A stretch of 64,000 nucleotides of DNA from Marsupella aquatica (Eukaryota > Plantae > Marchantiophyta), in contig OZ316896.1 in NCBI GenBank assembly GCA_973895155.1, positions 8,701,539-8,765,538 on the forward strand, written 5' to 3'. Position 1 is the first letter of the stretch, and every line of letters begins with the position of its first letter. Positions 22,306 to 60,640 of the stretch are shown here, in pieces. Below the pieces are notes generated by a model. That model saw only the letters and a list, made by a program, of their open reading frames with translations. It had not been told where the DNA came from and made no database searches. The position numbers were made by a program, and so were the translations under genes.

Positions 22306-23006
22306 TTGATTCCATAGTAGGGTCGTTAGTATTTCACTTGTTATTCTTCTTAGTTTTGTTTTAGTGTTTTTTGTGTTTTAATTATATTTTTTATATAAGC
22401 GATAAAACAAACTGATGGCAAAGTAGGTTTGATGTTTACTCTTAGCATGATGTCTTGGTTTATAATTTTCTTAAGATTACTTTAAAAATATTTTCAATTA
22501 AATTCACATTTATAACACATGATTGTGCTGTGAGATTGTCAGTCAACTATTTGTTGTTGTTAGACTAATGTTTTATTAACGGTTCTTTTAGCAGTTTTTA
22601 AGGGAGTTGAGTTGTATAGAATCATCACTAAACATCAATAAATGTGGCTCGTATTGCAATTTGCTTTCCAAAGCGTTGATGTGTTGTAATCCACCTATCA
22701 AGGTAAGAGATAATAGAATGACACTCATAGTAAAAAGTCTGGAAATTATCAACCTATAAGTGGCTTGTAAACAGTCTGCGAAATGATGAACAAACAACAA
22801 CAGATGTTCAAGAAGCAATCAATGATGATATTGTAATTGTGAAATGAAGACTTCTATAAGTTATTTCATGAACTCATAGTTGTAAAATCCTTCTAGAAGA
22901 ATAGGGAGTTCATGTCCACCCTAACTTTTGAATGAATAAGACAAGGTATTCACAAGATACTAAAGAGAAATTCTTGCATAAGTATCTCATTTCTCCTCCA
23001 ACATCA

Positions 23007-23340: not shown

Positions 23341-25268
23341 TATCAAGCATACCCAACTTTCCAGACCAAACATTGAGGACCCTTATGAGCATGGCTTTTG
23401 GAGTCGTTAGGTATCTCAAAACTGAAGGGCTGTATTCCCAGTCCCAAAATATGAGATTCATGTTTTTTTTAATCAAAATCCACTTTCCAGCTTATACCCA
23501 AACTTTAGTGTTTTATACTTTTGGATGATCTATTGCAAACTGTCATACTGCCAAAGAACAAGAAGTTTCCATCAGGGAGACGTTGTGACAAAGGAAGGAG
23601 AGCCAGTTAAGGGAAGACAATGGAATTGAAAAATGAAAAAGTGAGTCTGCCATGACTTTGTTAGACAAGGTGTTTCTAGTTGGGTTCGGACATTAGAGCG
23701 TGGCTGTGTCATCACTTAGTCTCAATGTAATTGCGGGTGTAATTGTGCTAAATTCAGACTCACTTTCCTTCTCCAACTTAGACATTACCTTTGTGTAGTT
23801 GTTCTCAACTTATATATATATAAGTGGTCTAATGAATTAAAAGTTGTAATGTCTTTGGAGAAGGAAAGTGAGTAATCCTCTACCCTAACTTGTGGATAAG
23901 CTACAACATTCGCTAGCACTAATACCTATTTCAAGGTGATAATTTATAGAGGTCGGATAGCCTACCAACTAAAATACAATGAGTAGAAAATGACTTTCTA
24001 CTACGAATGTAAGTTTACTTATTATTTTATTGTCTGTGTGTTAATGTCGTAGGGTCGTTAGTATTTTATTTTTTCTTCTTGTTAGTTTATTTTTAGTGTT
24101 GTTTGTGCTTTAATTACATTTTTATATAAGCATGAAACAAACTCATGGCAAAGTAGTTTTGATGTTTAGTGTTATTACGATGTCTTGGTTTATAATATTT
24201 TAAAGATTGCTTTACAATTATTTTGAAGTCAAGTCACAGTTATAACACATAATTGTGCTATGAGATTCTAAGTCAACTATTTGTTGTTGTTAGATTATTG
24301 TTATATTGACGCTTCTTTTTAGCACTTTTAAGAGAGTTGAGTTGTATAGAATGAACATACTTGTATTACGGAACAGCAATAAATGTGGCTTGTTGATGTG
24401 TAGTAATCCACCTATCAAGGTAAGAGATAATGAATTGACACTCATAGTAGTTAGAAATTTGATTTATATAGTCGTTCTCAAAAACTCCATTTCAACAAAT
24501 CCACATCATCAAGCTAATTAATCAGTGTACCTGCCTAATAGAGGATGACTTCATTTTTGCAATCTTTCACTAGTGCCCTGAATTCTAGTAAAGCAATACT
24601 CTGATTCCCTTGCACTTCCAGATGTTTTGAGTATTAGTATTAGTTCCCATATTTGAACGTAACTAGAGATATAAATAAATATTTGAACATAAATGCCCCA
24701 TATTGTTGATTTGGTTCATTATTTGACAAAAAAACATTTTATAGCTAAGCTTTCAAACTGGTATGTTGTGACATGGCGTAAAGCCTTGAAGACGCATGGA
24801 TTAGTATGCAAATTCACCTCAGTAGCAACTGGTCGATGGATTACAGATGGCTCTCTTCTGTCCAGATTCAGCCATTTTGGGGGGTTTACAATAAATGAGA
24901 AGTTTACTTAGAAAGATAGTAAGCTACCACTTTTCAGTTCCTGTCTTATAGTCTGCTGGCTCGCATTTGCACATTATAGTTGACATGACTCAGCAGTCCC
25001 AATATAGTAATAGGTACGAAGCTTTTCTTCACTATATCCAACAGTCATGCATGTACAACTTAAATATAGTAACAGGTACGAAGCTTAGTTTAGCCTTGCT
25101 TTGCGCTTCATAGAATAGAATAGAGTTTTAATGTCATTTTATTTTTCAATGTCCTTCTTTTCCCGGTGCATCCCTTGTATTTTTCATACTAGACCTACAA
25201 AAGAAAGATTCTAGTATTAGAATTTGTTTTCTCTATTTTGTTGTTAAGATAGTACATAGTAAGTTTAT

Positions 25269-28200
25269 TGTTGAGCATAGACAACATTCGTAACAGCAAG
25301 CCCATGAACCATCCAACGCACAATAGTCGACACAGAGAGATACGTGGTTCACCTCCACACGAGGCTACGTCCACGGGAACACACAAGAGCTTTACTGCAC
25401 TCTAGGCCGACCGGCCATACCAAGCATCCACAGCACAAGCTCTCCCTATCTCTCAACTAGCTCCGTAACAATGAGCCTAAGTTCCACCAGGGTCTGGCAT
25501 CAGCCCTAGCTATATGCACAACAGCACTACCGCTAACATTAGCTAAGCCCTAACCCAAGTTAGCCTAAATGTAGTTAGCTCATGAGTCACAAGACTAGAG
25601 CAATATCTAACAAACTTCCCCTTGACTCTTGTCTTGGGGACTGAACTAAATGCTACCATATGGAATCATCAGCGGGAAATTCTAGACAATCACCAAACCA
25701 GGTCTCCCCCTAAAAACCACAAGGGTTAACTAAGGGTTAACTAGAACTAAGCCGTAGCCTAACAGGAATGAGTAATCCATATACAAATAGTCACACATTG
25801 CTAAATAACTCTACGTGCACTACAATTGCAAAACCTGCAAAGTAGCACGGTGTCTTGAGAAACTCTCCAAAGGAATCACTTTGGTAAAGGCATCAGCGGG
25901 ATTGAGCTTTGGACCATCAATCTTGACTAGCTCAAAAGTTTTATCAGACACTGCTTGCCTGATAAAATGGTACCTGATATCAATGTGCTTCACCCTGCTA
26001 TCCATCACCTGGTCAGCAGCCAAGTGAAGAGCACTCTAACTATCACAATTTAGAGTCATTTTTCCATGCTCTAAACCCATCTCTGCGATCAACTTATCCA
26101 ACCAAATTGCTTCCTTTGCTGCTTCTGCTGCTGCAACATACTCTGCTTCTGTAGTAGACTGAGATATGCACTTCTGCAAGGTAGATTTCCAACTGATACA
26201 TCCTCCTCCAAGAGTGTATACAAACTCAGTTGTAGACCTCCTTGTATCCAGACAGCCTCCATAGTCAGAATCTACATAGCCAACTAACGTTCTATCTGAT
26301 CTCGCATCAAATAGTAATCCATAGTCCTGTGTTCCTTTCACATACCTGAGAATCCATTTCACAGCTTCCCAGTGTACTTTCCCTGGATTTGACATGAATC
26401 TGCTGACCTTGCCCATCGCTAGGGCCAAGTCAGGTCTAGTACAAGTCATCAAATACATCAAACTGCCTACTGCCTTCTCATAAGGAATCTTAGCCATCAG
26501 ACCTTTCTCCACAGCATTTGTAGGAGAGAAAGCCGATGATAACTTGAAATGTGAAGCTAAAGGAATACTCATTGGCTTACAGTTCTCCATGTTGAATCGT
26601 GCAAGTACTTTTCTCGCATACTGGCCTTGACTCAAGCACAACTGTCCAGTCTCAGAGTTCCTAAAAATCTCCATCCCTAAGATCCTCTTGGCCTTACCAA
26701 GATCCTTCATTCTGAATTCAACACTCAATTTTGCCTTGAGACTGTCAATCTCAAATTGATCTTTAGCCACAATTAGCATGTCATCCACATAGATCACCAG
26801 AATGATGAAACCAAATACATCATTCTTGACTGATTTCGTATACACACAAGGATCATACACCATCCTTGTAAAACCTTGAGCAAGCATGAAATCATCAAAC
26901 CGCTTGTTCCATTGTCTGGGAGACTACTTCAATCCATACAAGGACTTGAGCAATCTGCAAACTAAGTTGTCTTGGCCTTTCTTCATAAAGCCTAGTGGCT
27001 GTCTCATGAAGATCAACTCTTCCAAGTTGCCATAGAGAAAAGCAGTAACAACATCCATCTGATCCATCACCAGACCAAAAAACACAACAAGCTCACACAA
27101 GATCCGAATTGTGGAATACTTAGCCACCGATGAAAAGACCTCATTGTAGTCCACTCCTTTCTCCTAAGTGAACCCCTTGGCAACAAGCCTTGCCTTGTAG
27201 ATTTTATCTCCACCCTCTGAAGGACTGTCCTTCTACTTGTAAATCCACTTGTTGTTCACCACTTGTTGACCTCTTGGAAGCTCCACTAGCTCCCATGTCT
27301 TGTTGTCACTCAAAGATTGCACCTCCCTCTGCATTGCTGCATTCCACTCATGCTTCTGCTCTGAAGCACAAGCCTCATCAAGATCAGACACCATTCTGCT
27401 GAGGAGCATAACTTGTTGTGAGATGGCGGGTAATCCCCTGCTCCTTACAATACGTTCCAATTCACCAGAACTGTATTCACCGCCATTATCTGATCGAAGA
27501 TATCTCACCTTATTACCAGTCTGATTCTCTACTTGGGCTTTCCACTCCTTAAAAGTGGCAAAAACATCAGACTTATTGTGTAGAAAGTATATCCACACAT
27601 ACCTTGAGTAATCATCAATAAACATGACATAGTATAACCGTCCAGAATTTGAGGGAGTAGGGGCTGGATCCCACACATCACTATGTACATACTCAAGTAC
27701 TTCCTTGTTGGTGTGAGTTCCAACTCCGAAGGGTTTCCTGTGCTGCTTCTCTAGCACACAGTGCTCATAAAATTCCAACTTACAAGATTGCAAATTAGAA
27801 AGTAATCCTTTTTTCTGAAGAATAACCAAACCTTTTTCACTCATGTGGCCCAAACGGAAGTGCCACAGCCGGGCCGTCTCCTCATGAGATAAGGTTACAT
27901 TGTCTTCATGACAGACTACACTACCCTCCAAAATGTATAGATTGCTATGTCTCTTTCTCTTCAATACAACTTTAGTACCAGTTGAAACCTGAAGGACACC
28001 ATTAGCAGAACTCCACTGATGGCCATTTGCTTCTAAAACTCCAAGTGAAATGAGATTTTTCATCATGTTGGGAATGTGTCTCACATTCCTCAACGTTCTT
28101 ACAGCACCATCAAACATCTGAAATCTTACAGATCCAAGTCCAAGAACTTGACATGGGATTCCATTTCCCATCAACACTGACCCGTTAGAAACCGTGTAAG

Positions 28201-29750
28201 AACAAAAAAAATCTCTCCTAGAGCAAATGTGAAAAATACATGCACTATCTAGAATCCAGTCATCACTACCTAGATTTGACAGTACGTTGAGAGCATAACC
28301 TTGACATCACAATATGTCATCATCATTGATTAAATCTACCTCATGCGAGCTCGATGCTGCGTTAGCAAATGCAGTAGGGACCTTTACTCGACAATCCCTT
28401 TTCATGTGGCCAAGCTTGCCACAATTCCAACATGCAAGAGGCTTCCTCTCTTGCGATTTCCCTCTGGATTTAGATCTCCCCCGTGATGTAGATCTAAACC
28501 TGTTCTGCCCATTCGTGCGCTGCGCTGCTCTCCCACGGTTCACGTTCAGCGCAGTGCTAGAAGATGTGTTTGTGATTGACCCAGCTTCTTCTGAGCATCA
28601 TCAGACAATAAAGAGCTCACCACCTCATTATACGGAATGGACTTCAGATCTCTATACAAGAGCACCTATTTCAAGCCCTGATATGATGGCGGTAAGGAGC
28701 TTAGCAGAAGCAAGGCCTTATCCTCATCTTCAACTCCTTTTCCTAGGTTTGACAGATCCACCGCTAGATTATCAAACTCATCCAGGTGATCCTGCATCTT
28801 GCTCCCTTCCTTGAGCCTGAGGCTCATCAAGAGAGACTTCTTGTACAGCCGGTCTGACGCATCTTCCCGGTAGTACTTCTCTCTTAGAGCCTTGAACAGT
28901 GACGCGCAATCCACATAATCATCCAACTGCTTGATGATGTGTGGCTTGAGATATAGCATCACTGCATTGACAGCAATCACCTGCTCCTGTCTCCACTACT
29001 TCACATAAATCTCCTCTCCATCATACTGCTCTCGCGAGGAAAGTAGATGAGCTAGGCCCATGGCCCGTAGAACACCCTTCACTTGTTTCTCCCACAGCAA
29101 GTAATTAGTACGACTATCATACTTCTCCACCTCAAACTTCACTCCTCCAAATCTAGCCATCTCCCTCTTCTTCCCAACTACCAACAACTCTGGTAGTAAG
29201 ACAGCTTCCTCCACTGCACGCCGCACCGGTGATCGTACCGGTGTTACTAGTTCCTCCTCAAACGGTAGCAGCTCCTCCTCAGACTCTCTGTCTGACCGTT
29301 GCGATCCTGAAGCTCCACCGATGCCAATTCTTCCAGTATCCTCCGAGTCACTCATATGAAACAATCACCAAAAAATGTCACCTCCCAGGCATGCTCTGAT
29401 ACCACTTGTTGAGCATAGACGACATTCGTAACAGCAAGCCCATGAACCATCCAACGCACAATAGTCGACACAGAGATATACGTGGTTCACCTCCACATGA
29501 GGTTACGTCCACGGGAACACACAAGAGCTTTACTACATTCTAGGCCGACCGGCCATACCAAGCATCCACAGCACAAGCTCTCCCTATCTCTCAACTAGCT
29601 CCGTAACAATGAGTCTAAGTTTCATCAGGGTCTGGCATCAGCCCTGGCTATATGCACAACAGCACTACCGCTAACACTAGCTAAGCCCTAACCCAAGTTA
29701 GCCTAACGGTAGTTAACTCATGAGTCACAAGACTAGAGCAATATCTAACA
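25269..29750 (-). mobile_element. Ty1/Copia LTR retrotransposon, 4482 bp, non-functional (stops, frameshifts, integrase deletion)
   Basis: 344-bp LTRs at 25269-25612 and 29407-29750 (TG..CA, about 14 mismatches by eye), TSD TTTAT, tRNA-iMet PBS TGGTATCAGAGC (29393-29404) and a PPT next to 25613. Domain order is gag (CWNCGKLGHMKRDC) - PR (WILDSA) - IN (WHFRLGH, HSDVW, RSDNGGEY) - RT (YVDD) - RNase H (YVDSD, TEAEY). Confidence 0.97.
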
Positions 29751-41564: not shown

Positions 41565-42035
41565 ACAAAAGATGTCAAGGTGAAGAAAAATTTTGAATTG
41601 AAAAAAGATGTTGAGGTGAATAAAGATATATGTTAAGGCGAGGAAAGGATGTTGAGAAGAGAAAAAAGATTTCGTGATGAGTAAAGATGTCAAGATAAGA
41701 AAATGATGGGAAGATGGGATAAAAGAAGTCAAGGTGAGAAAAGACGTTGAGAAGAGAAAAAGATGTCAAGGTGAGAAATAGATGGCAAGATGAGATAAGA
41801 GATGGCAAGGTGAGAAAAAGATGTCAAGGTGAGAAAAAGATGGCAAGATGAGAAAAGGATAAAATTTTGAGGTGAGAATAAATATCGAGGAGACAAAATG
41901 ATGTTGAGGAGCGCAAAAGAAGTTGAGGGGAGGAAAGATATGGAGGGGAGAAAAGATGTCAAGGCAAGAAAATGATGTTGAGGTTAGGAAAAGATATGGA
42001 TGGAGGAGAAAAGATGTGAAAAAGATATTGTTGCA
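41565..42035. repeat. GA-rich degenerate minisatellite (~20-bp unit aaaagatgtcaaggtgaga)
   Basis: Roughly 20 diverged copies. Confidence 0.75.
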
Positions 42036-42605: not shown

Positions 42606-45074
42606 ACCCCCCCTCTTTTTTTCATTGCCTCCCTGATTGTCACCTCTCCCCCTTTCTCTTGGGCCGCCTCTCCCTTCTTCCCCCCTTCCCCCGACCCCTC
42701 CTAAAAAAAAAGCAACTAAAAGCAAGGGTGTGCCTTTTCTCCTTTTTTTTCCTCTAATTGCCTTATTATTAGTATCTTTATTTTCACTTTCCTTTGTTCC
42801 ACTTTGTCTCATCCCTTATCTTGTACTTATGGGAGGGTATATACTATTCATCCCTTCACCCATGGGTGTATATCATTAATTCCCCTCCCTATTTTGATCT
42901 TTATGTCTCATAGTTCTTATCCCCTCACAATGGTGTCCCAAGTGCCCCATTCTAATGGCAACACATGGCATTCACATAGAGCCTATGTCACACATACCCC
43001 CTTATTAGAGAATCTTTGTGCGTACCAAAATACTTTGTCTTGCTTGGGTTAGAGATATTGTTTTTGACAAATGAAAGGCTAGGATGAAAGGGCTTATAAA
43101 TCAAGGGTCATGAGATCTTCCCTCTAAACTTGGTTTTTGTAAACCTATTACATCCACTTATGGCCGGATAGGGTATTATAATAGTAAAAACATTATTGCC
43201 CACAAAAAAATTATTTCAGAGCAAGAGATTATGTGAATTCCAGATACCTCCAAAATGGCAAAATGGTTATACATCCCTTCAGAATTTATATATAGAATAA
43301 TGATGGTCTGGGAAATTTGATGTGGGTGCTCGCCATGTTAATTGCACTCAGGAAGGGCATTATGCCCCGTTAAGTGTACATATTAATTGCACTTATATAA
43401 CGCCTTGCTGATTTTTATCTTTGCAAGTTGCGGGACATTCATGGAGAAGAATGCACTGGTCAATATTTTGATAAGCTATCATGGACATCATCCTCTACAA
43501 TATAAAACTAGAAATCTCTTAGTCCTTGGAGTGTATTGAGATCCCGTCACCAAACTATTATAGGCAATAACTGTTCTCTCTTTTTGGGGCCTTATGGCAC
43601 ACAATGCCTTGTACACAGGATTTCATCATACACAAAATGTGCAACCAAATTGCACCCTCCATGTTAAAAACAAGGGAAGAATGGGACTCGTTTTGGGGGG
43701 CACTGTTGCACACATACCAGATGTGAAAACAAAGTGCACCCTCCATTTAAAAAGGCTCTTACAGGACACATTTTTCGGGGCACTATGGCAAACAAGCCTC
43801 ATACACAGGATATATTATGTACAAAATGTGCAAACAAATGGCACCCTCTGTAAAAAAAAAGGTTTAGCCCGGTTTTACACTTATGGGGTTGGCACTAGGA
43901 GAGGGCCGGCTGTACCTCACGTCGCCCAATCCGTTGGCACAGACAGCCAGACAGGCGCAGCCGTGACCGCATTCAAGGCCCCAAGGTCCTCAACGCACTG
44001 CCGTCAGAGAGTTCAATTCGCGGCGTCGAAGATTTGCCGTGACGGATGCAGTTGCCAGCCACGACAGCGCCAGGTGCAGAATTTGGGGTCCGGCCTTTTT
44101 ACCCTGTAGGGGACATGATTTGTCAGTTCCCGCTCTGCACTGCGCTGTGCATGACATGTGGCCAGCTGTGTCCCGGTACTGAGATCCTGTCAAATGGGTA
44201 ACCGAGGCAAGCAGGTAGGCGCGTTGGTCCCCACGCCATGGTTTTGTGTAAGGTAACCCAGGGCCTGTTCTGGGGCGGGTCATTTTTTAATGTGTTTTTC
44301 TTTGTCGCTATGGTGGGGTCCATCACTTGCCTGAAGCAGAAAATGCGAAGAAGATTCCTTGTCTGAATTTGCTGGACTATTCTGTGATCGTTAGATCTCC
44401 CCAAATTTAAAGATAATGGTCCGATTTTGGCTAATATATCTCTCTAAATTTAACCCTCATGATAACGGCTACTGCGTCCGTGGCTAGGTGGGAAAGTTGC
44501 TAATCAAGACAAAAAGCATGGTTCCCTTGTGCCAAAAAGTAGTAAAGACTTTTTGAGTGAGGTGGAATCTGGCTAACTTTTGCCACATAAAAAAAACTCT
44601 GTTTATGGGTGAGTCCTAGGGGGGTTAGAGGGTCTTTTTCTCAATACCGAAAATTTGCCAAAGTCCACCTCACTGAAAGTCTCCCCACGGTCTAGTAAAC
44701 TTTTGCCAAACTTTTTGTGTTCGAGTAGAGGATCTCCAACCCTTACTAGAAAGTCTTATCTTACCTACTGTAGCTGTTGAGTACTAAAGTACAAACAATC
44801 ATGTCCAACCCACCCATCTATTGCAACTCTATGGGATTTCCAGGCACTGGGTTTCTTATTACTACTAGCCCCGATTACCCGTTCTTTGAACGTGAATAGC
44901 GGAGAGGATAATAAAAAAATTATCAAAATATATTTTAGATTCATATTCTTTGAGGATTAATGAAATGATAAAAAACCCATCATTTTAATAGTCATATATA
45001 ATATATCATTCTCCTTGATGTGCACAGGCATTTTGTATGCACATCCATGTTCTATGCACATATGTTGTGGTGAG

Positions 45075-45790
45075 TGTCGTGACATATAGTATCGTAGCCA
45101 TAGTGTATCAAAAATATACAAGTCACCGGCAATGCATATGTGCAAGCTGCTAGCAACCAACATCCTTAGAAAAAGTCCAATCACATTCACAAGTGCCAAG
45201 AAAAAGCAACATAGGTGGTATGTACGTAGTGGAGGTGTAAACCTCTGTATATAAAAGGCGTGATAGAAACAAACGTACTGAAATCGAATCAAAAACCGGC
45301 GAGATGCCAAGATCGGCCGGGAGCATCTAACGAATCACTGTGTGAATTCCGTGTACGGAACCGACGAGCAGCCTCTGAAAAACTTTGTCTCACAGCGATT
45401 CAAGAAGAACTGAAAAATGGCAAAGAAAAACATGCCCTAAGTAGGACCGGGTCCAGGCATCACACTAACAAACACCTTTGCTTCAAGAACGGCCCAGACT
45501 CGCTACAAGAACATGACACTAACTCAAGTAGTACACTAGCCCTAACTATATACTAGCGGGCATGCGAGGGACATGCCGATGTGCACAAGAGGCACTGTCC
45601 CTCGGCATGACAGCTGTCGTGACATATAGTATCGTAGCCATAGTGTATCAAAGACATACAAGTCACCGGCAATGCATATGTGCAAGCTGCTAGCAACCAA
45701 CATCCTTAGAAAAAGTCCAATCACATTCACAAGTGCCAAGAAAAAGCAACAGAGGTGGTATGTACGTAGTGGAGGTGTAAACCTCTGTAT
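45075..45790 (-). repeat. 3' terminal repeat block: B1 (45615-45790), gc, A2 (45251-45612), B2 (45075-45250)
   Basis: B1 and B2 are both 176 bp with about 3 substitutions. A2 matches 55476-55821. A G7 tract (45791-45797) directly precedes B1 on the sense strand. Confidence 0.93.
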
Positions 45791-45829
45791 CCCCCCCAGA
45801 CCACAGCTAAAAGGAGGGCTGAAGAAATG

Positions 45830-47816
45830 TCAGGTAGCACGTGGAGCACAGGAAGGGCAAAACCATAACCCTTCTGGCACCTGGGTAAGTTCAGGCCGAA
45901 GGCAGAAAAGATGGTACCCTCCATTGCAATTATCACACAGCAGCATCTGGTCAGCATCATCAATTCGCAAACACACTTTGCAAGGGTAGTCCACAGGTGG
46001 AATCCAGGTAGAAGTCACAATGGTGGGATCCAGGTTAGGCAGATGACAAGGGGCACAATTCTTGGCATTGTCAGCAATTGTGCGCCCATCTGCCCCTTGT
46101 AACTCTAGCACTCCAGACGGTCGAATAGCTTTAACCCTGAGAATAGTATGACTGGTAGAGGTGTCCAGGGTGTCGTTAGCTTGCCGCTGCAAGTACACAA
46201 AATCTCCTACATCAAACTTCCTGACCTTGGGCTGAAAAGTGCCCCCTCGTGTGTGTGCATAACGTAGTGTGTCCCTATGCTGTGCAATGGCCAAATTCTC
46301 CATGGCCATGGGCATAACCCTCCTGAATAGGGCAGCCCTCTCAGAGATCACATCAGACCAAGTCACAGCTGAATCCAAGTCCACCACCTGAAGCATGTGA
46401 GCAGCAATAGCAGAAGGTGGAACTGGGTGATGACCAAACAACAAGAAGTAGGGAGAAAAGTTAGACAGTGATGCATGTCTGGACATCCTATACCCCATGG
46501 CAATGTAGGGTAAGGCCAGGTCCCAATCCTCCTTGTTTTTGGTGAGGCAGATCTTCCGGAGGCCCTTCTTGCATGTCTGAACCATGCGCTCTGCCAAGCC
46601 ATCTGCTTGTGGGTGATCTCGTGACGTTCGGCGATGATCAATGAGGGCCTGATCAAACAGCTCCTGGAACTCTCCTCTGAACTCTGATCCCTGGTCAGTG
46701 AGACATTCTGCACAAGCTCCAAAGCGGCTGAGAACTTGTTGTAGGAATGCCTGGCTGGTGCTACGGGAGGTCTTATCCGGCAATGCCACAAGTTCTATCC
46801 ACTTGGAGAAATGCTCTATCATGATCATGATGTAGAGATTACCCCGAGACGTGAGGGGTAATTCTCCAGCCAAATCACATGACCAGCGATAAAACATGCC
46901 CTGAATAGGGAGTGGATGAAGTGTGGGTTGCCGAGATGTGAAAGAAGTCCTCACCCTATCACATTGTTCACACCGGGCAATAACATCTTGAACCTGGCCA
47001 TGCATGCCTCTCCAATGATAATGAGGGACCAAGAGGCTACAAGTCCTCTTAACGCCAAAATGACCAAGCTCAGAATGTACCTTACGGATAAGGCCAACCC
47101 TCTCATGAATGGGTGGAACCACCACTTCCCTGTCTGGCAAGCAGCGCACGAGATGATCTCCCTTCCACAAGTAACACTTGGACCTTTGCTGAATTCGGTC
47201 TCTCTGGGTTGTAGTAACATGTATGGGGTACTCCCCATGCTGCAAAAATCTCAGAGTGTCGCTGTCCTCCCATATGTCCACCACAGGTTGGTCAACGATG
47301 TAGCATGGCAGCAAAGCAAGATAGGTAGATGCATGAAATGTAGGCAGGATGAAAACCTGGTCAAAATCCTGCCGTGCATCTGAGGAATCATCAGAGGCAA
47401 TCAAAGGGCTGCGGGACATAGTGTCAGCATTTTGATGTGTCACACCAGGCCTATGAATTACCTCAAAATCATACTCCTGGAGTATGAGTGCCCAACGAGC
47501 AAGCTTGCCAGTAAGCTTGTCGTTGGTCATCAACCACTTCAAGGGCTGGTGGTCGGTGTAGAGAACAAACCTGGTCCCATAGAGGTAGGGCCTGTAATGT
47601 ATTACAGCCCACACAACAGCAAGGAATTCACCCTCATAAGAAGAATAATGACTCTCTGCCTGATTGTTGCTCCTGGATGCATAGGTAATGACGTACTCTT
47701 TACCTTCCTCATCATGCTGGCCCAGAATGGCACCAATCCCAAGGGCACTCCAATCTGTGTGTAGCACAAAGACCTTGCTGAAATCAGGTCTTCTCAGCAT
47801 CGGGTATTCTGAGAGC
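45830..47816 (-). CDS. RNase H - DDE integrase - PHD finger, open frame
   Basis: RNase H: LHTDWS, YEGE, YTDH. Integrase: VHSELGHFG..CEQC, CDLAG, TDQGSEF, LAERMVQ. Terminal PHD C4HC3: CKVC...LLCDNCNGGYHLFC...WFCPSC (45848-45982). Confidence 0.95.
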
Positions 47817-48473
47817 CCCCAGCCTTTGTAAACTAAAGAGGTATACGTGCGTACACCCCCCTCCCTAGTACCCCTTATTATTTTTGGAAGCCTATAAAAA
47901 TTTCTCTTGTTATTCTTAAAAACTTAATTTTGGAGAATAAATCTGCCCCTTTGAGATATTATAATTTCACATTTTACACCATTTATGAAAGCCTTGAAAA
48001 GTTATAAATTCATCATGTGCAAACGGTTCTAAAACTGACGGGAGTGTTTTGGAAGGGTTTTGGGTACATACATTTTTGTGTTCGTGACCCTTTAACCCCA
48101 AACTTCAACTTTGGGGCATTTCTGAACCATAGGGCAGGGTAGTCAGGGTTCAAAAGCTCCAAAGTCCTAAACTACTCTGAATCATAGATGTTGCAAACAT
48201 AATTATATGTCATATACACATGTTCCAATAAAGGGTGGCCACAAGGACCAATCCTATTGTGACGCGTGTCACATCCATATTACATCACCTCTTGAAGCAT
48301 ATTAACTTGGGCGACATTTATATAAGCCTATATTAGTTAGAAAGGGTTCTTTGAATAAAACCATCCCTTGATATTTCTAAGCCAATTATAAAAATTAATC
48401 TCAAATCAGATTTTTTGCACCCTTCATCCGTTCGCACGTCCAGCCCATTATTAATAATGTTGGGGGCCCAAGG
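47817..48473. mobile_element. 657-bp AT-rich non-autonomous insertion with 8-bp TSD between RT and RNase H
   Basis: ctgagagc is duplicated at 47809-47816 and 48474-48481. Removing the insert restores LKEKLSEYPMLRRPDF. Short inverted cagcctt/aaggctg motifs lie near the ends (hAT-like, uncertain). Confidence 0.85.
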
Positions 48474-49480
48474 CTGAGAGCTTCTCCTTCAAAGTGGCAA
48501 ATGCTGCCTCAGCATCTGTACTCCATGTCCAAGTCACATTCTTTTTCAACAAAGCATACAATGGGTGTGCAATGGTACTGAAATCTTTGATGTAGATCCG
48601 ATAGTAATTGCACAACCCAATAAAACTCCTCAAAGTGTGAACATCGGTAGGAGTGGGCATTTCCAAGATGGATACCACCTTGGCCCAATGAGCCATGGTT
48701 CCATTTGGAAGAATGCGATGCCCAAGATATACTACTGATCTGACAGCAAATTCACACTTCTTGGGGTGTATCTTTAGGTTCACCTTCTTAAGCCTCATGA
48801 ATAGCTCCTCAAGGTCAAGTAGATGCTGGTCAAATCCTTTGCTGTGGACCAACACATCATCAATGTAGCATTTCAGAAACTCAGCACCTTGAAGAACCTG
48901 GTCCATGACTCTTTGAAAGAATATGGGCGCATTCTTCAAGCCAAATGGCATCACCAACCACTCCCATAGTTGGTTACTACCATGGAAAGTTGTTTTCTTG
49001 CGGTCTTTTGCAAGCAGCAAAATCTGGTTGAAGCCTTGCCTTAGATCCACAAGAGTGAAGATGTCTGAGTCTCCAATACTGTCAAATAGCTCCTCTGGCC
49101 GCGGCATGGGGTACCTGTCCTGGGGTGTGACCAGGTTCAATGGCCTGTAGTCCCCACACATGCGCTTCTCTGTCCACAATCCACTGGAATCCTTCTTTGC
49201 TGGCATCACTATAGCTGCCGCAAAATCTGATGTAGATGGCTGAATAAGACCAGCTTCATAAAGCTCTTGGCACCTCTCATCCACCAGCTGCCACTCATGC
49301 TTACTCAAACGGTGTCTCCGCCTGAAGATAGGTGTTTCATCAGCCAACTCAATGGAGAACTGCATAGTTTTGCACTTACCCAAGTCCTTCATAGAGAAAG
49401 CAAACACATTCTCATGCTTGAGGAGCAAATTCAGCAGCTGGTCCTTTTGTCTTTTACTCAGGTGGTTGCCCATGATAAAT
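48474..49480 (-). CDS. Gypsy reverse transcriptase domain
   Basis: RMCGDYRPLN, VDLRQGFNQI, MPFGLKNAP, YIDD, YLGH and SFIGLCNYYR. Confidence 0.95.
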
Positions 49481-49824
49481 GTGTAGTTGGCAACACTAGG
49501 AATAGGACCTAATGTACTCGTGCTTGAAGAGCCAGAAGTGCCAACCTCTCCACTGTCCAAGCTGCTAGCATGCTGCTGATAAGGTGATGAGGCCTCTCCA
49601 AGGCCTGTTGTACCTGCTGATCTGAAGTGGTCCACACCATGAAACTCAGAAATAATGTCAGCCGCATTACAAGGGACCTCCTCCCCCCCAACACTTGGAC
49701 TGAAGTGGTGAGTGTTGGACAGAGGTAAGTGCACCTGGTCTGGATGCCATGCAGCAGCACTGTGGAGTGGTAGGGCTGGAGCCCCTAATGCTGGAGGAAT
49801 GTACATCTGAAAAAGGATGCAAGT

Positions 49825-50770
49825 GACCAGAAGCCAAGTGAGAGCATTGAGATCCATTACCCTGCCAAGTAAAGCATTCCTGGCCAGCCTGGTGATTTTG
49901 GTGTGACCTGTAGTACCGGGTTGGAAGCCCATAGCCCGTTCTCTCTCCTCAGGACTAGGTTCATCCCATGTACCGGTAGAATGTCGATAAACCAGACCAG
50001 GACCATCACCCTGAAAAGCATGTGCACCTAGAAAGGACACAAATGTAGGCCAAGCAGCATGGGGTTGTCCAATGGTATTGGCTGGATACCAAGGTGCTGG
50101 CTCTTGCCGTGTAACTGGTTGCAAGAACTGTCAGGATCCAAAATCTGGTCCACTGTAAGGTTAGTGTCCCTGGATGTGTGGTGAAGAGCCATCTCCAGCA
50201 AGGAAAGTGGTGCAAGGTTAGTCCAAAAGTTACGAAGACGATGTGCATAAGAACCACAGTGCACTGCATCAATGAGAAGGGGTGGTCCCAAGTAGTGCTG
50301 GACCACACTGAAATCCTCTTTGACCTGTGGACGCTGGTCAAACTGAGATGGAGTATTCTCAATGATATAACCAACAGCAGGATAAAGGGATTGAGCCCAG
50401 GTGAGAATCTGAACCAATGCTGTGAAAAGGCCAGAACGAGAATCATGTAGTCCAGCACCGTGACCAGCAGTTGAAAACCCTTGGCATTCCCAACCAGCTA
50501 TGATCAAATCAAGGGAGCCAAGAAGGGTTAAGTGTCGGTGTTGGACAAGCTGGATATCTGGAGGGAAGAAAGAAAATGTAGACTTCCATGCACTATGTGG
50601 AAACTGCTGGGGAAATCGCTCTGAAAATTCCAGCAGACGGGATTCAGCCACTTGCCTTGCACTTGGATCAACATCCACATAGATGTACTGCTTCACCACC
50701 ATGCCAAACTTTAGGAGAGCTTCCAGGCCTGTAGAAATGCCACCAAAAAGCTCAAGCAATGTAAGGCCAT
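49825..50770 (-). pseudogene. DNMT3-like C5 cytosine DNA methyltransferase domain in the pol polyprotein (one frameshift near 50120)
   Basis: Motif I LLELFGGI, II YVDVD, III DI, IV DLIIAGWECQGFS, V SGLF, VI IIENT, VIII IDA..HRLRNFWTNL, IX ERERAMGFQPGTT, X RLARNALLGR. Order and spacing follow the DNMT3 catalytic domain. Confidence 0.92.
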
Positions 50771-51139
50771 CTGAAGGAGGAGTCCATGTAACTGGTGCGC
50801 TCAAGATTGGGGCTATTAGTTGTCCATTATGCTGCCCAAGGTCCTCAAATTTGTGCAATGCAGCCACCAAAGGTCTATGGGCTACTTGGAGCCGTTGTAC
50901 CACCTCTGGTTGATGATCCACGTTGCTGGAAAGTGCTGCTATACGTGCAGCAGCATGTGCAGTAGCCACCTCATCATCATCCTCCTCAATCCAATCCTGC
51001 AATGGGTGGTTGACATAGGTAGCTGTGTGCACTACTTTGAACACACAGTGGTGAGCCATAGGGGTATGGGCACCATGCAAATCAAGTGGAATGTATCCCA
51101 AGTGTGAGCCATCCGTATGCCAATCAACTCTGTAGTATA

Positions 51140-51500
51140 CATGCTCATGCCAGTTGTCAATGGTAAAACCTGGTGGGAACAAAGCCTCCTGGCCAATGAG
51201 CACATCATACGTAGTGGCATTGGTAACCAAACATCTGACTGGGAAATGCAGTTCCTAATGTGTACCTCCATTAAAAGTGAGAGTGAGTAAAGTAGAACTC
51301 TCACCCAGCACATCCTCCACAGTGCCACTAGCAGTCCGAATGTGCCACCTGGATTGCTGTAAATGATCAGTCAGCAGTCCCATCTTCTTGGCAAACTGAA
51401 TGCCCAAAATTACTGGTTGAGCGCCTGTGTCTAGCATGACCACCTGAGGAGTGTGACCCTCCAACTTGACTGCTGAATTCCTGTTGTCAACAATGGCAAT
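51140..51500 (-). pseudogene. Retropepsin aspartic protease (stop at 51255)
   Basis: VMLDTGAQPVIL...IRTASG...YDVLIG. Confidence 0.88.
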
Positions 51501-52152
51501 GGTGGTGGAAACTAAAGTCCTGTCACTAGGCACCACTTTTGGCAAATGATGAGGTACCTTGTGAAGGGAGTTAGTGTCCACGGTCTTCCCACTCAACAGC
51601 ATAGCCAGGGAAAGATGAAGTAGCATGACCAGAATCAAGTGTAGCTCTGGTCACACAATTTGCAGCAATACTGTCATCTCTACCACTGGAAATCGGTACT
51701 GGGATAGCCAAACCAGTGGAAGCATGCAATGGAGAAGAAGAAGGTCCAGTATATACATGAGATTGGACCTCCAAAACCGGTGTCACAGGGGCTGATGAAG
51801 AATGCAGTGAGCCCTCTAGCGCTCTGATGACAGTTCTGGCATCTAGCTGTAAATCATGGCAACTGAAAAGTGGAGTGGTAAGAATCCTTTGTGCCATACC
51901 GGAGGTGAAATGCTCAAGCAGCTCAGGAAAAACAACTCCCTGTGAAATGTCAGCAGCACCTGGTGGTGGAATGGATGTAGCTACAGCTCCCTCCCCCCTC
52001 GCCAACAAGGTGCGCTCTTCAGCAAGTGTGAGTGGCTGAAAAGACTAGGGCATGACAGCCCGAGCTCCCCTGGCTCTAGTCATAGGACCAGCAGCAAGAC
52101 CATCAGCCTGTACAATGCGGCGTGTGGGAGCAATACGGGAGGCAGCACTGGC

Positions 52153-53673
52153 CTATTGGGAAGCAAAATAGGAAGGACAGAATGAATCTAAAAATTCTGC
52201 TGTAAGGCCAGGCTGTGTAGCAGAGGACAGCACACACTCACCCATATGAGCATCAAATGGCAAGCCATAGAAAGAGCGGGGTAGAGGTGCTGAACTGTCA
52301 GTGGTGCCTGGGCCAGGGATGGGTTGCACGTGACCAGCCGGTTGAGAAGGACCAGCAGAGGCAGTGGACTTGCCTTTGATGTTGGCAAGTTGGGCATGTA
52401 AGGACTCAACCTCATGAGTCAGAGACTGGAGTTGAGTTGCCTGTGCGTTGTGAGCCTCCTTCTGAGCTGGTTGCTTCTGTTGCTGCTTGGGCAATTTGTT
52501 AGCACTGGATGCTTTGCCACTGGAAGGAGGAGAAACTGATGCAGTAGGAGCCCTCCTAGCTTGTGGGGGAGTGGAAGCAAGAGTAGGATGAGGGGTCTAC
52601 TATCGTAGCTGCTTCATCTCTGGGAATTTGGCAAAACAAACTGCCTCCAAGTGGCCCACTTTTCCGCAAAAATCACAAGACAGGTCCTTAGCAACAATAT
52701 CACATTCATTAGCCTTGTGATTGGGGTTACCACAGTAGTTGCAAGATGGCAGCATGAAAGTAGCATGTGCTGGCTTGGTCTTGGAACCATACTGTGGCAC
52801 ACGGGAAGGGGTGGTCAGTGTAGGGGCAGTAGCCTGGTACCTGGATCGCGGGGGACGCGCAATACTGGCCTCATAATGTGCATGGGCCAACTCAAGTTTC
52901 TCAATAGTGTCATAGACATTGAGCAGGGTGTAGCTGTCTCCAAACTCTGAGAATACTTGTTGCAACACTTGCGAATGGAGAGCTGGTGTGCCCTCCAATG
53001 CGCGAAGATAGCGATGAGCAGCTTCTAGGTCAGTGATGCTCTGGGTGTCTTCCTTCAGCTTGAGAAGCCGGCGATACAGCATCTTCAATGTTTCATCGCG
53101 TTGCCTCACAAAGGTGGCCAACTACAGGATTTTGTCAGCACTCTTGATTGGGAATTCCAATTCAAGAACCTGGAAAAACTCAGCCACTGGATCAGCAAAG
53201 GCAGGGGAATCAATGGTGGGAGAAATGCCTGATGTAGCCTGTGCCAAGACAATGGGAGTAACTGGTGCAGTGGTGGGAACTGGAGTAGGAGGGGAAGTGG
53301 CAGGAGCAGCAACATGGGCTGCAATGGCATTCTGTAATGCCAGTTGTGAGGCAGCCGCAATTGCAGTGGCATAGGCAGGGTTAGGCAATTGTGTGACAGC
53401 AAGCAGCCATTGAGAATGTTGCTCATGCACATCCAAAGCCTTGTGGTGCACATACCTGGCTAGCTGCTTAAATGCAAAAGCATTTGTGAAGTTGCTGCCA
53501 TACTTCAACTCCAATTCGTAAACGACAGTGTAGAAAGTGGATTTGAACTCACGCAAAGAAACAGTGCCTGGCCGCCCACTGAAGTGCTCAATGCGGCCAA
53601 ATGAGTGACTGGCATCCATGCTGTATGTTGGTGAAGCTGGAACAATCACTGATGCAGAAGGAGAAAAAGGCAA
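52153..53673 (-). pseudogene. Gypsy gag with two CCHC zinc knuckles (in-frame stop at 53122)
   Basis: CNYCGNPNHKANEC and CDFCGKVGHLEAVC; FVRQRDETLKMLYRRL resembles the retrotransposon gag motif. Confidence 0.85.
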
Positions 53674-54109
53674 AGAAGTGATAGCAGGCTTCGGGGTAGA
53701 GGTGAAGCGACCGCCAAATGTAGCAGAAGGGTTGCGTGGTGTGGGTGCTGCTGCTGTCTACTGACGTCATCAAAATTGCCGAGACTCCAATGAAATTGGC
53801 ACCCACGGTCGTGGATCACTCCGTAAGTGGTACCGGGGTGTCGGTGGCGATGAGCTGCTACGACTCGGCTCCTCTGCTGACATGCTGCATGCTCACCCGG
53901 GGTGCCTAAATAAAAAATGTCCCCCTTCCCAGTGGTATGAGGTGCTGAGGGGAAAGAAACTGACAAGAAAAATGGGATCTAGCCCCAAGGCTAGGAAATA
54001 AGACCCACAAAGGAAACAACCGTGCGAGGCAGAAATGTGTAGAATGTGTAAGCGCTGAGAAACTGTCAAAGTCTATGCAGATGACATGTGGTGGCAGCAA
54101 AGAAATCCG

Positions 54110-54870
54110 GGAAGAATGGGCCCTTGAAAACATGAATAGGGGCCCCCCTTAAGTGTATACATTGGGCCCCTTTAAAGTGTATACGTCGGGCCCCTATGTG
54201 GACCCGAAAAAGGAAGGACCGGCCGGCACGGTGCCCTATGCAAGTAGTCGAGAACAAAGCAAGAGCGAACGGAAAAAAATGGGCACTGCAACACGTGAAA
54301 GGGGCCCCCTTAAGTGTATACACATCGGCCCGATGTGGACCCAGGAACTGGCAACAGGTCGATCGTCGCACGGCAAAAAACTGAGAAAGGCCGAAAAAGG
54401 GGAAAATAGCCGAGGCAAGCTCACAGGTGACCGGAAAGAGGAGAAAAGACGTCGCGAGGCGGGGCAAAAGAAACCGGGCCCTCTTAATGGCATGAGCCCT
54501 CCATAGGGCTTCGTGCCCCACCTTATGTGCTCCCGAAAAGGGGCTACGAACTCCCCTCCTCCTCTCCTTCAATGCAATTTGGGCCTCGTGCCCTGGCAAA
54601 AGACTCCCATGAGAGGAGTCAAGTGTACTCCCCCCCTTCAATGCTGACAGTGGGCTCCGTGCCCTGCAGAAGGACTCCCGAAGGGGGTCGTTAACTCCCC
54701 CTCCCTCCTTGAATCTTCATAGGGCCTCGTGCCCTGGTGACAGTATGCCCGAAGGCAAGGGAGTTGAGTGTACTCCCCTCCCCTGCTTCAATGTCCTTGT
54801 GCCCTCTCCTGGCACCCTCGCTCCCCCTCCTTCTTTAATGCAGCATAGGGCCTCGAGCCCTCCTTTCGCT
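54110..54870. repeat. Repeated motifs in the long GC-rich 5' leader of the Gypsy element
   Basis: gggcccc..taagtgtatac x3-4 and gggcctcgtgccct / actcccctcc x4-5. Confidence 0.7.
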
Positions 54871-55475
54871 TCCCCCTCCCCCTCCTTTCCTCACGCGTAT
54901 GCTCCTGCTCGGCTCCCCCTCTCCTCGCACTTAATTAAATGCTGGCAGAAATGAGAGGGCACGATGCCCTTTGCGCAGCCTGCCTCATGCGAGTCGTCGA
55001 CAACAAGGCGAAGGAAAGAAAAATAGCCAGAAAAGGGAGGCGCACAGAAAAATGACGGCCGGTGAGGAGAGAAAGAAAAACCTCGGGAGTGGGTAACACT
55101 AACATGGGCGTGCGGCCCTATGTGCGTGGTCGCCCCTCGGCCGTGTGCATACACAAAGGTGCGGCCTCCGGCTGCCAGGCGGCAAGAAAAGAAGGATCAA
55201 GAGAAGGGGCGAAAAGGCCCCCCTGAAATCGCAAAACCTCCCGGAAAGTGAGAAGCGCTCCCCTCGTCTCCTCTTGGGTGTACTCCGCTGGTCCGCAAAT
55301 TTAAGTGTATACACATAAGGGATGTGTATACAAAGAAAAATCTAACTCTAACTCCATCACTAGATTTTTCTTCAAATAAATTGCACTGCTGTCGACAGAA
55401 AGTGTTGACCGTCGCGAGCAATTGAGAAACACAGCGTTTCTGATCTTCTTCCCTTCACTCGGCAGTTCTTCTTGA

Positions 55476-55821
55476 ATAAAAGGCGTACTGAAATCGAATC
55501 GAAAACCGGCGAGATGCCAAGATCAGCCGGGAGCATCTAACGAATCACTGTGTGAATTGCGTGTACGGAACCGACGAGCAGCCTCTGAAAAACTTTGTCT
55601 CACAGCGATTCAAGAAGAACTGAAAAATGGCAAAGAAAAAATGCGCTAAGTAGGACCGGGTCCAGGCGTCACACTAACAAACACCTTTGCTTCAAGAACG
55701 GCCCAGACTCGTTACAAGAACATGACACTAACTCAAGTAGTACACTAGCCCTAACTATATACTAGCGGGCATGCGAGGGACATGCCGATGTGCACAAGAG
55801 GCACTGTCCCTCGGCATGACA
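55476..55821 (-). repeat. 5' terminal repeat A1 (346 bp) with TATA-like motif; no B segment
   Basis: Matches A2 with about 6 substitutions, a 1-bp indel and a 15-bp indel. Sense TAGTATATAG lies at about 55756-55765. Confidence 0.93.
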
Positions 55822-58800
55822 TGAGGCCATATTACCTATATTTTTTTTATGTACATGTCATAAGTTTTTCCCATGTATATGATGACCATGCACATGATGA
55901 CCATAGAGTTACGGTCTAGAGGCTTCACTCTAGACCCTAGCTTGTGAAAAGTAGGCTGCAGTTCGCGCTTTATTAGTAAGATATCTGGATTTAAAGGACA
56001 ATATACAGTTTTGACTGTCTTTTAGGTTAGTTGTTGGGTTTTCAAGATGTTCGTCCTACTTGTGCTGTGAAAACTGATTTCTAGTGTGGAGGCAAATTGT
56101 CCGGTAAGCGGAATCCCGCAGGCCATGTAAATACCCTGGCTAGTGAGGCTTTGGGCCCTGAAAAGCCAAATTTGAATCCCCGCCTGTACTACACTTCCAC
56201 CCTCACTTCCATCGTGCCACTTTTTGCTCTCCAGGTGCCAGAGCATGTGGGGAACTCGTCCTTCATTTCTTTGAACTGTCTCAGTGTAGCCATCACAACA
56301 GCATGAACAGCCCTCCTGTCCTTGAAAAAGTGACAATATGTGGATGCACCTTTGCTTGTGTGCTATAGCTCTTGATCCCAAGCTTGAATGGTGAGTCCTA
56401 AACTGGTACACAACACCATGGAATCCTAAACTTGCCACTCACTGATTTTACTGCCTTGCACATAGAGCAATTTGGAAATCAATATCAAAATTGGTGTTGA
56501 CAGACTAAGTATTTACTCTGTACATTAACCTTATTAAGGATGAAAGATAATCTTGAGGCTAATCAATGTTGATCAGCCCATGCACCTAGGGAGGTGCTGC
56601 CCACTGCCCGCTTGTACCTCACCCCCTATTGGGTTAAGTGCTAGTCACAAATAAAGCTGAGCATGAGCCCTACTCTGGTGCAGTGACAGGCAAGGTGGGC
56701 CCAGGTTCAAAAACTACTGGTAGTAATTTGAACCATTCTTACACACATTCCACCCAAAAGTGTGGATTTATTGGAGCTACCAATACTTGGAAACAATTTG
56801 CAGAGAGCAGGGCGTGGGCAGCTGACTACTCAAGGCTCATAATGAGCCTCAAGGTGCTTTTTGTCCTGAATGCATGCTTTGGGGATGGTCCGGTCTTATG
56901 GGTGAACCTGAGGGGGTTGGAGCCAGCATATTTTTAGTGGCAGAATTTTGCCCAAATTCTACTTCACTAATAGTCTTTGCCACTTATTGTGAAAATTTGC
57001 CAAAATTTTTGTGTTCCATTCTCCAGTTTTCTACCTACCCTCAGACCCCATTAGCCAGGATCTAATGGTTGTCCTTAACTCTAAGGAGATAGAATCTAGG
57101 ATAGAACAAACAAAAATTACACCAGGAAATCCATATGGATGATAATATTCTTACTAAATTTTCCTTCACCAAAAGTAAAATTTGTATAGCAAAAGAGGTG
57201 AAACCTTAAACTCACCCAGGTTAGAGCCCATGGGTTTCCTTGTGAGTCTTCAAAAAAGTATGTTTGGGTAGGAGCCACTGTCTTGATCCATGCCACTAAC
57301 AAAGAGATTTAAATCAGAGAAAATGGGGCCAGGCTGGCTGCAGTTCACGATTACAGCCTTTAATGTAATTATCACTATACTGAACTAAAGTTCAGCCAGT
57401 GCCAAACTGCACGGGTTTGAACAAAAAAGGAGAATAGAAAGTGGGTGATTGCGTTGCTTCCCCAACAGATTCACCTTTTAAATGCTGAAACTCAATCAAC
57501 TTTTGCTGAAAGCTAAGGATAGTTTAAACCATCTAAGTCTCTCCCATAAGAGGTGCCAAATGTAAGGAACTTTCAAGCATGGAGGGAGATTTGTCAGTCA
57601 ACTATTTTCAAAGAAAGTCAACTTTGATAGTCACTATCTTCCTCAGCACCCAGTGGAATCTGGTTTTGTTGGGTTGCTTAGAAACCACTTGGAAAGATCT
57701 TTCCATGAGCCTAATCCAGTAAAATTCCATTAAAAATTGAGAGACTTACAAATTTCAAAAGTTGACTGACTCATTTTCTTGCCACCTTCCACTCATCAGT
57801 GTAGTATGTACTACATGAGAAAAAGAAAGGGCTCTGGGTTGCAAAAAACATCCAAGCATCTTGACTGCAGACATTGAGGTCCATCCAAGCTCTTCCAAAA
57901 ATTTCATCAATCCAGAATATTATCTCACGTTTGTTTTCTCTAGTTGTGATCCATAGTATAACTCCTATCTAATCAACATGAACTCATTTTATTTATTTTT
58001 ATTTATTTTTAAATACACTTTTATTGACGAAGCCACCACAGCGAAGACCAGCAAGGCAGACAACAAACCAAACTGTGAGCCACATGCGCCAAAAAAAGTG
58101 ACTCAATGCCAGAACCATAACCATCCCAACGGATCACAACTCATGAATTCAACATGAACTCATGAACCATTGGGTTGGCAGTCTTTTTGTGTGTTATTCC
58201 GCTCCGGGTATTTGGATCCTTTTGGCCTTGTGTTTGCAGTCCGTGCAATTGGTCTCCTTCTGAGTTGTGAGGTAGGGGCTCTTGGTTTGCCTCTATCTAT
58301 TTAAATACCTTGCCTTTAAAGATGTGCCTAATTACCATACTGTCAAATTTTTATTGTATTTGTTCTACTGCAAGGGTTTTGCTATATGGGTACTTGGTTA
58401 TTGACTTCCATATGTCGCATGCTGATTGCTTGGAATTTTCATCTGGATGGTTTCCCCATCGACATTGTGCAGGATAGTGCCAACGGAAGAGACCATATGC
58501 TGACATGTGTCTTGTGCAGGACGGATTCATGGTTAACAATTCTCTATATTTGGCTACTACCATCTTCCCCCAAACAAAGTGCCTGGGCGTTGTGTTCAAA
58601 GTATTTTTTTTCTAAAAACACAACGTCATTTTAACACAACACTCGGGCGCTGTGCTCAAGATGTTACTCTAAACTGTTCTACATTGAGCACAAATAGTAA
58701 AACATTCAAGAAGCATATGCCAATGCCGATATTTAAACACAGCGCCCTGCAAGTACAAAAAATGGAAACACATAATCAAAATATGAATACAATGTCGGGG

Positions 58801-60159
58801 CGCACTATTCTAATCGAGTGCCCCACTATTCAAATATATGGCCTTGTGTGGCCTCGTGTTGGGGGAATATACATTAGTATTATAATTACATACAATTTTA
58901 GTGGCAATGTACTTCAAACTGATTTTTGGAATAATTGGTCTAGTTTTGTTGGTGTATTTAGATAAATCATGTGGAACACTGAGGCCCAGTGTACTAATTT
59001 GAGAGTGCCTGTCCCAGTTTCGATAACCAACTTTTGTGCCTATGAGAGCTTTTCTGTTGAGCATAAAAGTGTAGGAATGATCAGGTTCGTGCATGGTGTG
59101 GGGATAGTTATTAATTTCTTTTCAAATTATAAGGCAAAGCCATAACTTATTTTCCCGGATTTCAGTTTGCTTGAATGTTTTTCAAGATTGATTTATCAGT
59201 GTTTAGTAGAATCTTTACTGAAATATATATTGTAAATGTTTTTCTAAGTTTCACGAACATTACCTAAATTTGGTCCCTTGACTGAGATTTTTAATAAGTA
59301 TATTATGTTTTGGCCACCGTGATGTCCCTACACTAATGGCTTGAAAGGACAATGAGCACAAAAGCGAAAGAAACATTGATGATCCCCAGGTTACACGTGT
59401 CCAACGGTTTTGAGCACCTGGGCTTCTGGAGACTGGAGACTATGGTTGTGTAGGTGGACTGGCGTATGTGGGTTGCTTACCTGCAAATAAATGTCCTTTC
59501 CAAGAGAATAAAATAAGAATGGGAATCCAAGAATGGTGACTGATTACCAAACATCACAATTTTGATATGGAACATTTGACGCAGCGGGCTGCTAGGGAGA
59601 ATTAACTCCTATAATACACAATTGAGCCACTTTTTAGAATGATGAAGTCATTCAAATTTGCAGGGCACAAAAATTAAAAAATCTAATCAAAAGAAATAAT
59701 AAAACAAAATTAAATTATATTGAATGTGAAATAAAGAGTGACACTTTTTCCAAGCAAGAACTAAAGGGGAATTGGAAATGTCAGGGAATGACAATACACA
59801 ATAATAAAGTATTTTATGGACCATCTATGTATAATATTCTCCATGCATACTAAGCCCCATACATAGAAATAATATTCTCCATGCCTAGACATTGTACCCA
59901 TGGTAATCTATATCCTAGGAGTAGTTTAAATGATTACAAATATTACATAATGTAATAGAAAAGATCAAACCAAAAAATAGTACAAAAGGCCTAAGGGGGG
60001 AGGGGGGGTGGGAGCGGGGCTGGGCCGGGGCGGGGCGGGGAAGGTAAAGGTTTTCAAGGAATTACAAAATGAAAAATATAAAGACAAAAATCATTCTTGA
60101 CTGGTGATACTTTGTGGTTGTTGTTACTCATTTTTTACGCCCTTTTTCTGCAATATTTT

Positions 60160-60640
60160 TTTCTTAAGAACATCTTGGACGACACCACATCTTTTTTTCT
60201 TAACGGCATCTTGGGTGACACCACATTTTTTTCCTTAAACAACAACATCTTGGGTGACACAACATTTGTTTTTCTTAATGACATTTTAGATGACATGACA
60301 TCTTTTTTCTTTATAACATCTTGAATGGGAGACATGACATCTGTTGTTCTCAATGACTTCTTGGCCGACACAACATTTTTCTTCTCAACAACCTCTTGGC
60401 CGACATGACATCTTTTGTTATCACCGACATCTTGGCCAACACGACATCTTTTGTTCTCACATCTTGGGCAACACAACATCTTTCTTCTCAACGACCTCTT
60501 GGCTGACACGACATCTTTCTTCTCAACAACCTCTTGGCCGACACGACATCTTTATTCTCAACAACCTCTTGGCCGACACGACCTCTTTTATTCTCAACGA
60601 CATCGGGAACGACGTCTTGGCCGTCACGACATCTTTTGTG
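60160..60640. repeat. Degenerate ~39-bp minisatellite (tcttggccgacacgacatctttt..ttctcaacaacc)
   Basis: About 12 diverged copies. They generate the spurious repetitive ORFs in the ORF track. Confidence 0.8.

Follow-up and report, generated by a model that had tools for sequence, protein, structure and literature searches.

It is puzzling that a retrotransposon should carry the very enzyme responsible for its silencing, and the sole Gypsy example assayed was inactive in yeast (de Mendoza et al. 2018, PMC5890265). In the 64,000-nt stretch of DNA analyzed here (the window), the original prediction had placed a DNMT3-like cytosine methyltransferase (DNMT) between the protease (PR) and the reverse transcriptase (RT) of a retrotransposon.

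The DNMT lies within a 10.7-kb Ty3/Gypsy element on the minus strand of the window (55822-45075), ordered as repeat A1, long leader, gag, PR, DNMT, RT, RNase H, integrase, PHD finger, G run, and repeats B1, A2, and B2 (Table 1). As predicted, the DNMT is bounded by the protease (51255-51560) on one side and RT on the other; the Ty3/Gypsy domain order PR-RT-RNase H-integrase, with a DDE integrase, is present. The direct repeats are split in the layout A-coding-B-A-B, and their identities (97.9% between A1 and A2 over 339 bp, 98.3% between B1 and B2 over 176 bp) are close to the 98% expected. The element ends, TGTCATG and CACGACA, are of the TG...CA type. The element is nested in another repeat (flanks 44864-45072 and 55855-55982), and an uninterrupted copy of this target repeat at 21888-22306 of the window constitutes the empty site, which confirms a 4-bp target duplication. 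The TG...CA ends and 4-bp duplication identify insertion by a DDE integrase. Membership in the DIRS group, defined by a tyrosine recombinase, was rejected because of the rve and H2C2 integrase domains and the 4-bp duplication, and no tyrosine recombinase was found among the eight frames scanned for domains.

With repeats split in this way, it is hard to see how an element of the integrase type restores its ends. The G run precedes B1, not a TG end, and is kept in five of five related loci inspected; the internal B-A joint reads CA-NN-TG, resembling a joined pair of element ends; and inspection by eye revealed no obvious tRNA primer site directly after A1. Were a circle open to integrase at both of its B-A joints, either one serving, insertions permuted to A-B-A-coding-B would be expected. 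This arrangement was rejected, as B preceded the 5′ A in none of 28 loci, three of which had less than 200 bases of flank.

Table 1. Features of the element and motifs of its methyltransferase domain, in window coordinates.
Feature	Positions	Strand	Remarks
Repeat A1	55484-55822	-	5′ end of element; starts TGTCATG; 4-bp target duplication outside
Long 5′ untranslated region	53620-55483	-	
gag	51763-53619	-	Zinc knuckles and linker; five in-frame stops
Aspartic protease	51255-51587	-	LDTGA at 51434; upstream frameshift; stop at 51255-51257
DNMT3-like C5 cytosine methyltransferase domain	49822-50780	-	Motifs I-X unpermuted; frameshift near 50120
Motif ELFGG	50739-50753	-	
Motif GWECQ	50481-50495	-	Motif IV
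Motif IENT	50352-50363	-	
Motif AHRLRNFW	50223-50246	-	
Motif ERERAMGF	49924-49947	-	
Motif LLGRVMD	49852-49872	-	
Reverse transcriptase	48474-49482	-	YIDD at 48867; open, in frame with DNMT end
665-bp insertion	47809-48473	.	Noncoding, MITE-like; 8-bp direct repeat at ends, imperfect inverted ends
RNase H, HHCC zinc finger, and DDE integrase	46000-47808	-	Open frame
PHD finger	45833-45988	-	End of integrase frame; PF00628, E 1e-11
G run	45791-45797	-	Polypurine-tract-like; abuts B1
Repeat B1	45615-45790	-	Ends CACGACA; two bases join B1 to A2
Repeat A2	45274-45612	-	97.9% alike to A1
Repeat B2	45075-45250	-	3′ terminus of element; 98.3% identical to B1; followed by 4-bp target duplication

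The DNMT domain is encoded in two minus-strand frames (50780-49822) separated by a one-base frameshift near 50120. Six methyltransferase motifs map between 50753 and 49852 in the order I, IV, VI, VIII, IX, and X, unpermuted and with the catalytic Cys present, which bears out the predicted succession of C5-methyltransferase motifs inside pol. The N-terminal piece of the domain scored 29 bits against PF00145 (cut-off 22, E 1e-6), and its best sequence matches in the PDB were DNMT3A/B/C, ahead of M.HhaI and DRM. A profile built from 24 family members matched DNMT3A at E 1e-25, DRM2 at 6e-11, HhaI at 1e-9, and DNMT2 at 6e-4; the DNMT3A match comprised three stretches and covered both DNMT3A ends. 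An intact Calypogeia relative (P0189), whose domain shares 76% and 83% identity with the halves of the window domain, was used for structure prediction in place of the window copy. The resulting model (pLDDT 94) superimposed on DNMT3A with a Z score of 29.4 and an rmsd of 2.5 over 271 residues, compared with a best Z of 25.6 outside DNMT3. The domain therefore ranks as DNMT3-like by profile and by the predicted fold of its intact relative. Animal DNMT3A/B are its closest counterparts and share the unpermuted motif order, although identity is approximately 24%, the family has Glu-Cys (EC) for Pro-Cys (PC) in motif IV, and the PWWP and ADD domains are missing. Plant DRM2, whose motif order is permuted, is the weaker profile match. 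This ranking also bears on the suggestion that the enzyme methylates element RNA (m5C) and not DNA, a possibility that de Mendoza et al. raised for SymbioLINE-Dnmt (PMC5890265) and that would suit a domain presumably packaged with RNA. We judge it very improbable for this family, as profile and fold fit DNMT3 (E 1e-25) far better than DNMT2 (E 6e-4).

Alternatively, the domain could be a host DNMT3 captured once by a single copy and left to decay neutrally; changes private to the window copy do look neutral. However, sibling contigs from four public runs (6344 in X1, 12363 in X2) covered 30 of 30 bins of the element. They skip the 665-bp insertion, and the DNMT frameshift is absent from them in X10 (depth 364/373) and X4 (3071/3071); in X1 and X2, about half lack it, and loose contig ends occur there. 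Runs that contain the family have it in great abundance. A metagenome scan confirmed 496 relatives from 599 candidates, and among the best 80 of these 496, which were retained, the other element domains occur in window order at 79, the remaining one being a 1.6-kb contig. B-A-B follows the PHD finger in 15 loci, and five of these have the whole A-coding-B-A-B layout, with three exact 4-bp duplications, one with a mismatch, and one unreadable. The DNMT3-related domain is intronless and inside the Pol frame: intact Calypogeia protein P0189 is a single gag-PR-DNMT-RT frame, and P0004 comprises DNMT-RT-RNase H. In relatives P0007-P0009 and P0197, gag-protease-DNMT closes as its own frame before RT. 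Because siblings, 79 of the 80 loci, and proteins of Calypogeia, Closterium, and Klebsormidium all have the domain at this position, and because purifying selection acts on it (below), a one-off capture was rejected and can be virtually discounted.

The best named match of the window DNMT is from Calypogeia. The window also carries exons of a host KH-domain gene (BTR1/Nova-like; 4621-6279, minus strand), one of which shares 97% identity with Calypogeia fissa, compared with 89-90% for Riccia and Marchantia and 76-77% for Sphagnum. These identities in one exon indicate that the host is likely a leafy liverwort, in keeping with the land plant originally proposed.

Between the window and the loci, the N-terminal half of the DNMT had a dN/dS of 0.12 (76 unsaturated comparisons of 78; dS about 2.4), similar to the protease (0.11); the C-terminal half and RT were mostly saturated in this comparison. 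Among the loci themselves, ratios were higher (DNMT halves 0.31 and 0.61, RT 0.40, protease 0.83), as expected if most loci are decayed copies, which weakens the signal within the family. Indeed, most loci carry stops, and only seven of 78 have a stop-free N-terminal DNMT half. The spacer between DNMT and RT (dN/dS 0.82) is represented by only 12 alignment-picked loci and is not usable as a control. A second comparison, confined to liverwort-type runs, used 40 of 55 variant sites, with one site unclassed. The sites that separate X10 from the window plus X1 comprise 17 silent and seven replacement changes, whereas those private to the window comprise four silent and 11 replacement changes, spread evenly over codon positions (Fisher p 0.01). 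Thus, active lineages kept the protein, and the window copy decayed neutrally. The DNMT domain is under purifying selection in the family, and the neutral evolution named as grounds for refuting the original prediction was not found.

In motif IV (GWECQ), the window domain has Glu where DNMT3A has Pro, and the usual PC dipeptide is absent. The same Glu-Cys form occurs in 76 of 78 loci, and Glu precedes the catalytic Cys in 118 of 203 related domains scored. This recurrent substitution is one reason to consider that the domain persists because it binds DNA or flips bases and transfers few or no methyl groups. It might, for instance, hold or shield the ends of the cDNA, or the B-A joint inside it, while the unusual split repeats are replicated. 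Further points in favor of such a module are that the domain accompanies split repeats in the window, the related loci, and Klebsormidium, and that KnitGypsy-Dnmt3 was inactive in yeast (PMC5890265). We nevertheless find such a module unlikely. The catalytic Cys is kept in 77 of 78 loci and the motif VI Glu in 75 of 78; the SAM-binding motif and the motif VIII Arg pair are likewise kept; and intact relatives retain the SAM-binding, Cys, Glu, and Arg positions. Moreover, the PC form occurs in relatives, with EC and PC mixed through the DNMT tree and within clades, a pattern easier to reconcile with a tolerated variant than with loss of activity.

Retrotransposons that carry a DNMT were known before, as the original prediction recognized, and by its sequence features, the window element is classed as a member of the KnitGypsy-Dnmt3 kind. 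KnitGypsy-Dnmt3 of Klebsormidium nitens has a Dnmt3 within Gypsy Pol, DIRS-like split repeats, and a DNMT under purifying selection (PMC5890265), all shared with the window element; in yeast, it produced no methylation, a result that its authors call inconclusive. The two differ in host (an alga versus a likely land plant) and in the abundance of the window family. Motif IV reads PC in Klebsormidium protein KFL_009030040 (P0281) and EC in the window, and the C-terminal PHD finger of the window element has no counterpart in P0281, which is annotated as a partial protein. According to the same paper, the dinoflagellate SymbioDIRS-Dnmt3 also combines a Pol-borne domain of Dnmt3 type with repeats laid out as A-coding-B-A-B, and its domains conferred de novo CG methylation in yeast; SymbioLINE-Dnmt, likewise from a dinoflagellate, is another cytosine methyltransferase inside a retrotransposon (PMC5890265). 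Compared by published description, SymbioDIRS and SymbioLINE rely on a tyrosine recombinase and a LINE-type endonuclease, respectively, unlike the DDE integrase and 4-bp duplications seen here. In EpiLTRs (bioRxiv 10.64898/2026.05.21.726589), LTR elements likewise combine DNA methylation and chromatin reading in one element; the sister of their methyltransferase is DNMT4, an adenine methylase and a chromodomain accompany it, and the authors hold EpiLTRs distinct from streptophyte Gypsy-DNMT3. The openly readable text that we searched contained no report from liverworts, mosses, or chlorophytes. Later papers citing the 2018 work use the broad word "streptophytes," so a land-plant mention may exist. 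On this basis, the kind of element is known, and what is new is its land-plant range and its chlorophyte relatives with a relocated domain.

A profile search of the family gave 642 representatives at E up to 1e-30. Closterium proteins have the domain order of the window element, and P0281 is colinear with a Calypogeia relative across protease-DNMT-RT (856 columns, 31% identity). A second arrangement, RT-RNase H-DNMT-integrase-PHD, prevails in the wider family; its named members are all chlorophytes, including Chromochloris, Chlamydomonas eustigma, Monoraphidium, and Pleodorina (P0013, P0017, P0031, P0313, and others), and PF00145 missed the methyltransferase in both of two such proteins scanned. 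The DNMT domain stays within Pol even where it is relocated. Chlamydomonas REM1, by comparison, has a PHD in a separate, reversed frame. A midpoint-rooted FastTree phylogeny of the N-terminal DNMT half, computed from 204 sequences and lacking a host DNMT3 outgroup, resolved the two arrangements as separate groups of 38 (support 0.96) and 166 (0.85), with the window, Calypogeia, Closterium, and Klebsormidium together in the former. An RT tree (141 sequences) separated all DNMT-bearing elements from a further 72 Ty3 RTs with support 0.8; in it, the chlorophyte-type group (0.96) and the Klebsormidium group (0.98) are sisters, a mismatch in detail with the DNMT tree. Built without host DNMT3, the trees suggest one old DNMT capture in green plants and one relocation. 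A fuller history can be offered tentatively, and with more doubt than assurance: a Ty3 lineage would have captured DNMT3 once, before chlorophytes and streptophytes split, and kept the PHD finger and split repeats since; one branch would have moved the domain between RNase H and integrase; and the lineage, now plentiful and active until recently, would supply liverwort and moss genomes with de novo methylation via a Glu-Cys loop that Pfam screens largely miss.

As to function, we think it somewhat probable that the DNMT3-like domain of the family's Gag-Pol methylates cytosines of the element's new cDNA. The domain would be packaged with RT and would act on newly made cDNA, and the precedents of DNMT3A and SymbioDIRS-Dnmt3 make CG the probable target; each new copy would, as a consequence, enter the genome already marked. 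The lack of activity of KnitGypsy-Dnmt3, the closest enzyme assayed, and the EC loop count against this reading. The PHD finger of integrase may read histone H3 at the target and help to choose or read it. The element would probably benefit because a new copy passes for host DNA with its usual methylation or keeps its expression low. CpG in the element coding region is 0.13-0.31, compared with 0.48 for the window; such depletion was rejected as a sign of self-methylation because it is unspecific, the flanks being more depleted than the element in five related loci.

An active enzyme might instead work mainly on host chromatin, with the PHD finger directing it to the site of insertion, to sister copies, or to elements in competition. 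That finger is in the same polyprotein, animal DNMT3 reads histone H3 through a PHD-like ADD domain, and the great abundance of the family would also fit. Nonetheless, RT and integrase separate the DNMT from the PHD finger in this lineage, and protease cleavage would likely part them; the methylome of Klebsormidium, which carries such elements, is moreover ordinary and plant-like (PMC5890265). We regard action on host chromatin as quite unlikely. If the enzyme proposed to mark new cDNA is active, bryophyte methylomes could receive a contribution from these elements that does not depend on host DNMT3. The land-plant family has many recent copies, and a public assembly of Calypogeia contains a natural domain that is intact; Calypogeia CAM6101866.1 is an example of such a domain. 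Together with hundreds of relatives in two domain arrangements, these supply many more enzymes to assay and a host group with known methylation genetics.

The window copy itself is dead. A single frameshift, as originally predicted, is correct for the DNMT domain but not for the element: a second frameshift falls between 51587 and 51763, in-frame stops number six, and the 665-bp insertion interrupts the RT/RNase H border. The repeats diverge by 1.75%, in agreement with approximately 15 window-private changes in the 960-base DNMT domain; at usual plant rates, we take the copy to be of the order of a million years old. The MITE-like insertion, given its 8-bp duplication, is presumably hAT-like, and contigs in the compared runs match its sequence too. 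Elsewhere in the window, we observed a decayed Helitron (16764-20786, minus strand) with Helitron_like_N and PIF1 helicase domains, a decayed Copia element (25268-29705, minus strand) with 300-bp terminal repeats 96% alike, and degenerate tandem arrays of approximately 19 and 35 bases at 41603-42005 and 60155-60604 that are related in inverted orientation.
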